DNA of 62,349 bases from a virus (lineage: Duplodnaviria > Heunggongvirae > Uroviricota > Caudoviricetes), in IMG/VR virus record IMGVR_UViG_2718218228_000003. One strand, 5' to 3'. The position numbers are program-made. Within the stretch, counting starts at the first letter, position 1. The number at the start of each line of letters is the position of its first letter. Positions 6,001 to 9,000 of this stretch are shown piece after piece.

Positions 6001-9000
6001 CAGGCCACCCTGCAATGGCATATTGCATGGTGTGCTCCTTATTTATACATAACGAAAAACGCCTCGAGTGAAGCGTTATTGGTATGCGGTAACGCCGCGC
6101 TCAGGCGGCTTTGATAGTCATATCATCTGAATCAAATATTCCTGATGTATCGATATCGGTAATTCTTATTCCTTCGCTACCATCCATTGGAGGCCATCCT
6201 TCCTGACCATTTCCATCATTCCAGTCGAACTCACACACAACACCATATGCATTTAAGTCGCTTGAAATTGCTATAAGCAGAGCATGTTGCGCCAGCATGA
6301 TTAATACAGCATTTAATAAAGAGCCGTGTTTATTGAGTCGGTATTCAGAGTCTGACCAGAAATTATTAATCTGGTGAAGTTTTTCCTCTGTCATTACGTC
6401 ATGGTCGATTTCAATTTCTATTGATGCTTTCCAGTCGTAATCAATGATGTATTTTTTGATGTTTGACATCTGTTCATATCCTCACAGATAAAAAATCGCC
6501 CTCACATTGGAGGGCAAAGAAGATTTCCAATAATCAGAACAAGTCGGCTCCTGTTTAGTTACGAGCGACATTGCTCCGTGTATTCACTCGTTGGAATGAA
6601 TACACAGTGCTGTGTTTATTCTGTTGTTTATGCCAAAAATAAAGGCCACCATCAGGCAGCCTTGTTGTAAATGTTGCAGGTATCAAGTAAGTAATTAGAT
6701 GGAGCGCCATAAATTATGAATTCATCGTTTGTCGGGTCCATCTCCATCTCTTGTCCTATTGCCATTCTTGCGTCAGTGTCGTCAGCGGCGAAGCATAAAA
6801 CAGCCCACGCACCCATTGTTTTAAAAAGAACTGCAATTGGCTGTGGTTTTACTGAATTTGCGTTAGCGCGAAAATCACAAATCGCACTTTCATGAAATTC
6901 CATATATCACCTCAAATAAGTGGTTTGCTGCCTAATTTCATTTTCTGGCGACCAACACAAGTCATCTTGCTGTCAGTTGTTTGGATTTACGGTAGCCTGC
7001 CGCGTAAAGAGCTACATTTGGAAGACAAGTTGAGCCTTCATATTTTCTGGTCAACGTTGTCAGTGTTATTACTTCTGCTCTCATTGCTGGTTTGCGTTTG
7101 CATTGTAAGACCACTCGTGATGGGGTTGGCCTGTGTAGTTTGTCGGAGCTAATCGCCTCCTGACTTTGCAGGTTTGCGCGACGAGCTCTACGGCGAGAAG
7201 CTGCGGTGCCTTTAAATTCTGTTTTTCTGGACATAGATTCCTCCCGAATAAACTTTGGCGATGCAATCTCGAAGCTCCTCCTGAGACGGTTGCTTCGGCA
7301 TTGCATCCCACAGCTTATGTGGTTGGGTGATCTGGCTTTTCAGCCACGTAGTCGAGAGTCGACGTTGTTTAAAGAGCCTGCCAGTCTGTTCCATTTGGCT
7401 TCCAGCGTCCTGCTGATGGTTAAATAGTACGATATGTACTTCACTTGGTCAATACAATTTGTTCTAAAACGGGGCGTTTTTTTACAACGCTTTGTATTTA
7501 ATAGTATTGTTTTTTAGCGTGGGTGTATTGCCTCGGCGATGTAAGGAGAGATCAGAATTGCGTTGTTTAGTGAGTTGTATCTATTTATTTTCCAATAAAT
7601 ACAATTGGTTATGTGTTTTTTTGGGCGAGAGGAAAAGAAAACCCGGCATGGAGGCCGGGTTGATGATTAGCGGTGTGGCCTTGAGCGATAATGCTCACAC
7701 ACATGTTCAAGATTTCCATGCCTTATCCGTTCATAGGCATTCACATGAACTTCTCGATCGAATTGGTCATTCAAATTGTATGTAGACATCTGTGTTTTCT
7801 CATATTGGCGGCAGCCCTACAACCGCTTGAAAAAATGTACCAGACGCGCTAAGGTTACATCGCAAATATTGTGTACCTTAACAAGGGCTCCTTTTGGAGG
7901 CTCTGGTTAAACAGCATCAATGTCGGACTGGGGAGTTGGACATTGTGCTGAATGCTTTTGCATTATTGAGGCCGAACGTAAACCTTCAGAATTGAAGAGA
8001 TGCGTTCGGCTTCTTCGTTTGTGATATCGTTAGGAATGCCTTTAATCGTTACTGTAACCCCTGATTCAGGTCGAAGAACTACTGGAAGATCATAGGTATG
8101 AAGTGCATTAGCCTTGCCTTCGACTTTTGTTGGTTCGCCAGTCAAATCTTTTTCCTCACTGGATTCTTTGTCAATCGGAGTGTATGGGATTTCTTCACCA
8201 GACTGGAAAGCTACAAACTTTTTGATTGCACTTTCCATGCGGCTTTTATATGCAGTAATGCTGCTGTCGCTAGGCTTCGGCTCAGTTGCGTTGATGTATC
8301 GCTCGGCAAGCTCATTCACATCAAGCTGAGTAACATCACCCATTTCCTCTTCTTGGACTACCGTTAAGAGGCGAGCGGATGAGTTTTTTAAATTTCGAGC
8401 GGTGGCCTCCTTCATTATGTTCAGCGACATAAGCTCTTCAAGGAAGTCCTTGAATGCCTGCACGCTAACGTTTGACTTTGCCATTTGCTCTCTCTCTAAG
8501 TTATTGACTCAGATCGAGTTTATCCAGGAATTGATTTGCATGCAAGACTCAAGTCTTGAGAATTTCCGTTCAAGATCCACTCTCAATAAAAAAGGCCGCA
8601 CCTCTGCGACCTTTCATCTCCTAAATCTCTTTTCTCTTACCTAAAGAAACAGCAGGCTGGGTCAGCCCTAACAACTTCAAGTGCATCGGTCAGAGAAAGC
8701 TCCGTGCTATACAGGTGTTATTTCATATCTTTTTGCATCCAATAAATTTTCCATCTGTCCAGAGAGCGGATGCACTTGATTCTTGTTGATGGCAGGACGT
8801 TTTTTCACCTGCCTCACCCTGCCATACAGGACGCTGCTCACCGATATCTATCGTCCGGTCATTGATGTTATAGACAATATCCAGATCATTACGGATATAC
8901 TCAGATGGCCTTATGCTTTCAATGAATAGATGAACTTCTTTTTGACCGCTTGATACTCATGGCCATTAAACTCCATCTATCCTCTTTACCCAAACGTCTC

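Follow-up and report, generated by a model that had tools for sequence, protein, structure and literature searches.

We analysed a 62,349-nucleotide (nt) stretch of phage DNA (IMG/VR record IMGVR_UViG_2718218228_000003), hereafter the window, for the cassette that lies between its repressor gene cI and the leftward operators and promoter, OL/pL. Coordinates are window positions unless otherwise named. The window is a Shiga toxin (Stx) phage of the VT2-Sakai/Sp5 type. Its positions 7400..9000 align at 100% identity with the immunity region of VT2-Sakai/Sp5, and equally with Stx1- and Stx2-converting phages of O157:H7 and with many O157 chromosomes. In Escherichia coli O157:H7, Shiga toxin 2 is carried mainly by Sp5-type Stx2 phages. 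An initial annotation had placed here a stand-alone gene for an acidic protein of 173 amino acids (aa), with a promoter, an inverted repeat and flanking terminators of its own, in the slot that holds rexAB in lambda. The gene, its acidity and its position between cI and OL/pL/N were all confirmed, but the gene does not stand alone. Between the same two terminators lie also a structured RNA and a 40-aa open reading frame (ORF), both missed earlier, and these change what the unit is (Table 1). The observation was thus real and more interesting than first described, and the defence reading attached to it is plausible from the position of the unit.

Table 1. Features of the cassette and of its immediate neighbours, in window positions.
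Feature	Position	Strand	Description
cI	8986..9687		repressor gene
Decayed DUF3024 gene	8643..8976	-	two frameshifts and one in-frame stop
Upstream intrinsic terminator	8585..8615	-	hairpin 8590..8615 and U tract to ~8585
Inverted repeat CAAGACT-TG-AGTCTTG	8543..8558	strand-neutral	perfect 7-bp arms over -35; candidate operator
Putative cassette promoter	8517..8545	-	-35 TTGCAT 8540..8545, 17-nt spacer, -10 TAAACT 8517..8522; predicted start ~8510
5' leader	8485..8516	-	conserved GATC 8512..8515 and conserved CAATAACTTAGAGAGA stretch including the ribosome-binding site
ECs1184 / H0093 / Sp5 ORF23	7963..8484	-	173 aa, ATG start, acidic, isoelectric point (pI) 4.85
Conserved structured RNA	7790..7962	-	between large gene and small ORF; covariation-supported
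H0092, type-A small ORF	7667..7789	-	40 aa, His/Cys-rich, phrog_21154
timm-type intrinsic terminator	7630..7661	-	stem 7640..7661, tail to 7630; just upstream of OL/pL
N	6962..7306		

In database records identical to this region, the 173-aa ORF is named H0093, ECs1184 or Sp5 ORF23 and annotated 'hypothetical protein', and the hairpin downstream is labelled 'terminator for the pRM transcript'. Cro and the OL/pL operators are the other neighbours, with kil and N downstream of the cassette. The gene has been met twice in the literature. In 2016, Mondal et al. worked with MG1655 lysogenic for Sp5 and obtained 43 in-frame deletions in the prophage; only ORF21 (ECs1180) and ORF23 (ECs1184) could not be deleted. 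The authors found no domains, stated that loss 'appears to be lethal' and considered the two genes probably needed for stable lysogeny (PMC5155283). A 2025 RNA-interactome study recovered the ECs1184 protein from uninduced Sakai cultures with borderline RNA enrichment (false discovery rate 0.065; PMC7618764), which fits the lysogen expression proposed earlier. The literature searched contained nothing further on ECs1184. The gene is not mentioned in the searched passages of the phiPA8/phiO104 transcriptome paper, and PA8 was absent from the matches listed for the region.

A structured RNA and small ORFs linked to the 173-aa gene

The spacer behind ECs1184 folds with a minimum free energy of -54.1 kcal/mol (z = -3.9). 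RNAalifold on eight relatives gave 37 pairs, 9 of them with compensatory changes, and the single-sequence fold of the window agreed with this structure. In the eight-relative alignment 95% of the cells were paired, as against 26-47% with slid partners, and the covariation score was reached by none of 500 shuffles. A second sequence group of 14 loci showed the same layout, with compensatory changes at 15 of 30 pairs and 94% of the cells paired (31-46% with slid partners). Hairpin P1 directly follows the stop codon, and two inner hairpins are enclosed by P2, a long-range helix (ACCAGA/UCUGGU in the window). The 3' strand of P2 has UAGCG before it, and an A/U-rich stretch with UCAAG, the hairpin P4 and finally the small ORF's ribosome-binding site complete the layout. 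A covariance model of the 14-locus group recovered its own members at E = 1e-26 to 1e-38 and did not detect the RNA group of the window; the link between the two groups therefore rests on layout and short motifs. Rfam 15 gave nothing over the spacer at E <= 1 and nothing at gathering score in eight related loci; L062 returned chance-level matches only. A tRNA identity was excluded, as the spacer contains no tRNA, and HnrS is irrelevant to this RNA, being a late-region small RNA of Sp9, Sp10 and Sp12.

The apical 14 nt of P1 (~7922..7935, enclosed by the stem arms) occur in two exactly inverted orientations among close relatives. One, CAACTCCCCAGTCC, is that of the window, Yersinia, Cronobacter and L046; the other, GGACTGGGGAGTTG, is that of L054, L081 and L086, and phage Oslo differs from it by one substitution. 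A phase-variable switch was rejected, since the flipped form was present in 0 of 233 E. coli genomes; the inversion happened during evolution rather than by active switching. TAATGC around the ECs1184 stop codon is invariant in the RNA group of the window. On the opposite strand, a promoter-like site at 7937..7966 (+; TGGACA-18-CATTAT, 9/12 consensus positions) overlaps both P1 and this stop codon, and it would yield RNA antisense to the 3' end of ECs1184.

The small ORF of the window, H0092, which by locus-tag numbering is presumably ECs1183, has conserved counterparts 170-175 nt downstream of the large gene in Salmonella phage Oslo, Cronobacter, Yersinia and L086, and their indels preserve the reading frame. 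Small ORFs at this place fall into three types: A (40-44 aa, phrog_21154), B (57 aa, very basic with pI 10.4, phrog_33859) and C (47 aa, pI 9.0, with a CxxC...CxC pattern). Comparison by hhalign revealed no relation among the three, and none of the small ORFs matched a Pfam family. Substitutions at first, second and third codon positions numbered 14/12/32 in type A, 154/104/467 in type B and 147/138/390 in type C. This excess at third positions, together with the in-frame indels, shows that the small ORFs are translated.

Gene, RNA and small ORF keep together. The small ORF begins 148-175 nt after the stop codon of the large gene in all 26 tabulated phage-type loci (25 and Oslo), and every one of 32 type-B small ORFs in IMG/VR had the family gene directly upstream (~155 nt). 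Exact matches to a 16-nt motif of the RNA numbered 22, and 15 of these had the gene directly upstream; the other seven, which lacked it, were chance matches and not the RNA. Remnant loci apart, the RNA was thus not found without the gene among the motif matches. One such remnant, L091 (IMGVR_UViG_2703718791_000008, 1444..4172 of that record), has a closely related cI and, after it, two different cargo genes (181 and 309 aa) with a terminator of their own. Behind these, all that is left of the ECs1184 homologue is its last 20 codons, followed by the RNA (intact), a small ORF of type A and timm; the promoter and the remaining gene have been replaced by the cargo genes. In a second remnant, L090, only the gene's 3' end and some of the RNA survive.

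The cassette also moves as a unit. In Salmonella phage Oslo a single block, 85% identical, corresponds to window positions 7631..8612 and has a different cI for a neighbour; the limits of this block match almost exactly those drawn by the initial annotation, which had seen in the unit the architecture of a moron. The trio occurs in lambdoid prophages of many Enterobacterales, and in prophages of Proteus, Providencia, Morganella, Serratia, Yersinia and Cronobacter the homologues are invariably placed between N and an S24-type repressor; in 933W/phi24B-type phages stk occupies the slot instead. Thus, flanking terminators, a predicted promoter, presence or absence among related phages and movement as a block agree with a moron. 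Its base composition is not distinct (G+C: cassette 0.445, cI 0.454, N 0.478). Most of the cassette-containing region was found in 220 of 5,426 complete E. coli genomes, and a locus scan of genome contigs returned one locus. Within the cassette, RNA group and small-ORF type are shuffled relative to the phylogeny of the large protein, and proteins 73-77% identical to ECs1184 are paired with types B and C.

The ECs1184 protein and the signals that flank it

An AlphaFold (AF2) model of ECs1184, built with a 79-sequence alignment, had an overall predicted local distance difference test score (pLDDT) of 81. It comprises four helices at residues 8-95 (pLDDT ~95), a disordered acidic linker at 103-126 and a conserved C-terminal beta-beta-alpha unit at 130-168 (pLDDT 87-89). 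As modelled, the N-terminal domain may resemble the core-binding (SAM-like) domain of tyrosine recombinases, as found in lambda Int (2oxo, 3nrw) and in the recombinase-like repressors MrpR (8a0a) and SroF (9rd5). The likeness in Pfam is below threshold (Phage_int_SAM_1, _4 and _6), and Foldseek against PDB and BFVD returned no significant match to the model. Unlike a recombinase, ECs1184 has only 173 residues and an acidic domain fused to an unrelated beta-beta-alpha unit. It has no Phage_integrase match, and the C-terminal 45 residues form that unit in place of an R-K-H-R-H-Y catalytic domain; the protein is therefore not a recombinase. A PDB profile search gave chance matches only. Neither the large protein nor the small ORFs or the distant relatives tested reached threshold in Pfam, NCBIfam or PADLOC, and PHROGs placed the cassette proteins in unknown-function families only. 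No enzymatic, membrane or nucleotide-binding domain was seen in Pfam or in the model.

A profile search of 1.84 billion representatives returned 661 clusters (50% identity), all of 160-200 aa and of the same architecture, with Y79, R82, R138, P151, D153 and E158 among the invariant residues. Distant members occur in Alphaproteobacteria, Dyella and Chloroflexi, where the gene is solitary, without RNA or small ORF, and often lies beside CcdAB, PIN-Phd, HicAB or ParE modules, or beside BrxCD. Solitary basic relatives (L010-L017) occupy variable chromosomal spots in Mesorhizobium, Dyella, Marinicauda, Rhizobium and two metagenomic chromosomes; in Dyella, DUF5343 and Hypoth_Ymh genes come after the family gene. 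Acidity is common to all 25 large proteins of the cassette type (pI 4.7-5.6), and all six solitary relatives are basic (pI 8.9-9.9), with long basic Pro/Ser-rich linkers.

These basic relatives bear on the idea that the family binds nucleic acid and that the phage copy is a host-directed regulator or nucleoid-associated protein, retuning host or prophage expression in the way that CII and Cro of Stx phages retune gene expression. The layout of two domains and a linker recalls H-NS-type proteins, and the phage protein was borderline RNA-associated (PMC7618764). However, the phage-borne proteins are acidic without exception and share no homology with known nucleoid proteins, and the strict linkage to an RNA and a micropeptide would go unexplained. 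We regard this idea as very unlikely.

The 375 nt between cI and the first terminator are not an empty spacer but the decayed DUF3024 gene. An intact DUF3024 gene directly follows cI in phi24B/933W (vb_24B_13c), in Salmonella phage SE1 and in a Morganellaceae prophage. The terminator therefore closes a cI-DUF3024 operon, and a cassette behind it needs its own promoter. The terminator hairpin, GAAAGGUCGCA-GAGG-UGCGGCCUUUUUU, lies where the initial annotation placed it and folds at -15.9 kcal/mol (z = -3.3), although a simple terminator scanner did not call it. Upstream of the homologue, GGTCGCAGAnnTGCGGCC with a T-rich stretch behind it recurs in other genera, in five of the six other aligned loci, JGI locus L024 being without it. 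The predicted role of this terminator is to end the cI/decayed-DUF3024 transcript and to insulate the cassette from pRM. A separate cassette promoter would contradict the assumption of the depositors that pRM transcripts run through to timm.

The promoter proposed earlier stood as to its position, the -35/-10 pair lying at an equal position in seven diverged loci (E. coli, Salmonella phage Oslo, Cronobacter, Yersinia, Morganellaceae, Serratia and a metagenome) and reading TTGCnn-17-TAGAAT in three of them. Its strength by consensus did not, for it matches 7 of 12 sigma-70 positions and went uncalled by a promoter scan. We infer the promoter from this phylogenetic footprint rather than from mapping, and the predicted start moves from ~8495, as first given, to ~8510. 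In the leader, GATC and CAATAACTTA are invariant or nearly so in the loci of E. coli, the Salmonella phage, Cronobacter, Yersinia, Morganellaceae and Serratia. The inverted repeat reported over the -35 is exact and occurs once in the window, against 0.02 expected. AAGACT-N1-4-AGTCTT lies over the -35 in six of the seven loci (four exact, two with one mismatch), and a second palindrome, TTGCATGCAA at 8536..8545, adjoins the repeat. No further operator copies were found in the window, and the idea of a second repressor was dropped for this reason. Since the palindrome accompanies the gene through phages with unrelated cI and Cro and is unique in the window, it points to local autoregulation.

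Other promoter regions of the family differ. In L022, L025, L046 and L003 an extra segment, ~110-130 nt upstream of the homologue and between terminator and promoter, holds a LexA-box-like CTG-N10-CAG (e.g. CACTGAGTTCATATACAGTA). A further terminator-like hairpin (AACCCTC..GAGGGTTTTTTT) follows this site in L022, L025 and L046, not in L003. Neither the window nor phage Oslo has this segment. GATC-containing repeats crowd the promoters of L059, L061, L062, L068, L072, L074, L077, L078, L080 and L086 in place of AAGACT/AGTCTT, some of them with palindromes (TTCATCGATCGATGAA in L059, or CGATCG-N-TTGATCG), which suggests operator divergence or sensitivity to Dam methylation. The GATC retained in the window sits at the predicted start.

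At its other end, the unit closes with a hairpin of an 8-bp stem with six G-C pairs and a T tract (-14.3 kcal/mol, z = -3.7). It is homologous to phi24B tRM and to the lambda sequence immediately after rexB (timm), and the earlier term 'timm-like' is thus literally correct. What lies beyond this terminator could by itself account for the failed deletion. ECs1184 would then be a mere autorepressor with no further function, and its removal would let strong leftward transcription read through timm into nutL-N-kil, with toxic effect. The cassette promoter is oriented as pL and lies ~1 kb upstream of it, the operator covers the -35, and kil and N are downstream. Against such a cis or polar artefact, timm is a good terminator and the promoter is weak by consensus. 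The selection on RNA structure and small ORFs, and the large family outside phages, would also go unexplained. We give this explanation little credence.

Possible functions of the cassette

In lambda the same slot, between cI and OL/pL, holds rexA-rexB, followed by the homologous timm. Like the cassette, rexAB is prophage cargo, dispensable for the basic plan of the phage and swapped between relatives. By Pfam, PHROG and PADLOC the cassette has no sequence or fold relation to RexA or RexB. RexB is a polytopic membrane protein, whereas the cassette encodes none and ECs1184 is soluble in its AF2 model. rexAB is transcribed with cI from pRM, whereas the cassette is set off by a strong terminator and, as predicted, a promoter of its own; and the structured RNA and the micropeptide have no equivalent in rexAB. 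The other occupants of rex-type slots, stk of 933W/phi24B, bstA of BTP1 and nun of HK022, the last two likewise placed after the repressor, are lysogen-expressed accessory genes as well. They are protein-only determinants without a linked RNA and micropeptide, and the cassette has no homology to them. Lysogen-expressed cargo in an immunity region is therefore of a familiar kind, whereas none of the three parts of the cassette fits a described family.

A role in exclusion or abortive infection is plausible by position, that is, by association. In the form that the initial annotation gave it, the protein, with or without the peptide, would sense or block a superinfecting phage in the manner of Rex and no addiction would be involved. 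The shared slot with rexAB and stk, the moron architecture with its horizontal movement, the ECs1184 protein found in lysogen cultures (PMC7618764) and the different cargo held in the slot by L091 all speak for it. Yet no PADLOC model matches, the protein lacks an enzymatic, membrane or nucleotide-binding domain, and a role of this kind is not in itself an explanation for the failed deletion of the gene. Rex-like exclusion alone seems to us unlikely.

The authors of the deletion study favoured an auxiliary factor of lysogeny maintenance. As a DNA-binding protein, ECs1184 would silence Sp5, and its loss would lead to induction and host death. The failure of deletion from the lysogen (PMC5155283), the position of the gene next to cI and the palindrome over its promoter are in keeping with this. 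We consider it unlikely, as the palindrome is single in the 62-kb window and leaves no visible regulon, and phages whose repressors and operators are unrelated exchange the cassette. 933W/phi24B-type phages, which have stk in its place, stay lysogenic without it. Moreover, ECs1184 is acidic, and the linked RNA and small ORF would find no explanation.

We tentatively favour a self-regulated, addiction-like module, in which the acidic protein would restrain a small effector peptide expressed through the RNA, plausibly in the service of exclusion or abortive infection. A weak sigma-70 promoter behind the terminator of the cI operon, overlapped by a palindromic operator, would drive what is probably a single transcript from ~8510 to timm, comprising ECs1184, the folded RNA of ~170 nt and the 40-aa peptide. 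ECs1184 would repress its own promoter through the palindrome and keep peptide output low in the lysogen, either directly or via the folded RNA, which carries the ribosome-binding site of the peptide. Loss of ECs1184 alone would release the peptide, or leftward transcription beyond control, and the harm to the cell would give the cassette its addictive character. The same switch might be tipped by a disturbance, for instance when another phage infects, resulting in exclusion or abortive infection. The restraint of the peptide by the large protein is the most speculative part. Under it, deletion of the large gene only would be harmful, which would explain both the undeletability of 2016 and the pairing of acidic with basic products.

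The module that we favour shares several traits with toxin-antitoxin (TA) modules of type II. Its first product is acidic and combines a disordered region with an N-terminal domain that is folded. A conserved and unique candidate operator, a palindrome, overlaps what is predicted to be its own promoter. The second product is small and often basic, the first gene was reported undeletable, and solitary relatives lie among TA modules, which we count in favour of this reading. Type II genes overlap or are a few nt apart, whereas those of the cassette are 173 nt apart with a conserved folded RNA between them. The second products, of 40-57 aa, have no known toxin fold, and the partners are shuffled without co-variation. 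Such shuffling argues against a specific neutralisation of peptide by protein as in classical type II systems.

Several observations weigh against the addiction-like module. A structured spacer of 170 nt is not a TA layout. Nearly identical large proteins stand with unrelated small-ORF types and with either RNA group, and the type-A peptide of the window, with a pI of 7.0, is neither basic nor hydrophobic. The N-terminal domain of ECs1184 carries a net charge of -4, unusual for a DNA binder, and taken alone TTGCAT-17-TAAACT is no better than chance. In PADLOC-DB 2.0, neither ECs1184 nor H0092 had a match at E <= 1. The failed deletion of ECs1184 is a negative result whose cause the authors did not establish, and in a polynucleotide kinase (PNK) assay the RNA-binding signal of ECs1184 was no stronger than that of green fluorescent protein (PMC7618764).

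A bolder version of the addiction-like module, which we hold to be somewhat doubtful, would make the cassette a new three-component class. In it, a protein resembling recombinase core-binding domains and a structured RNA of its own would jointly gate an interchangeable micropeptide effector of three unrelated types, giving both addiction and a trigger-dependent response to superinfection, and the basic solitary relatives of Alphaproteobacteria would be the ancestral form, which bound nucleic acid. A limited literature search turned up no described counterpart of a protein-RNA-micropeptide layout. The protein family of 661 clusters, the RNA motif absent from Rfam and the three swapping micropeptide families are apparently undescribed in the libraries searched. 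If the addiction reading is true, the undeletability reported in 2016 gains a concrete candidate explanation. A gene beside the repressor that cannot be deleted is a lead to stable prophage carriage, and perhaps to the exclusion of rivals.

Flanking genes in the window

Homology to Sakai Sp5 ends at 10075, just right of cro. Beyond it lie an IS3-family element with two overlapping transposase ORFs (10118..11331), which we take to be IS629, and then an HNH/AP2-like gene (11528..11971). No Sp5 cII, O or P was found by tblastn anywhere in the window; the prophage therefore appears to have lost or replaced its genes for establishment of lysogeny and for replication. On the other side, between ea10/ssb and N, an 83-aa ORF at 6652..6903 (-) is ECs1180 (Sp5 ORF21), a member of the function-unknown family phrog_2471.

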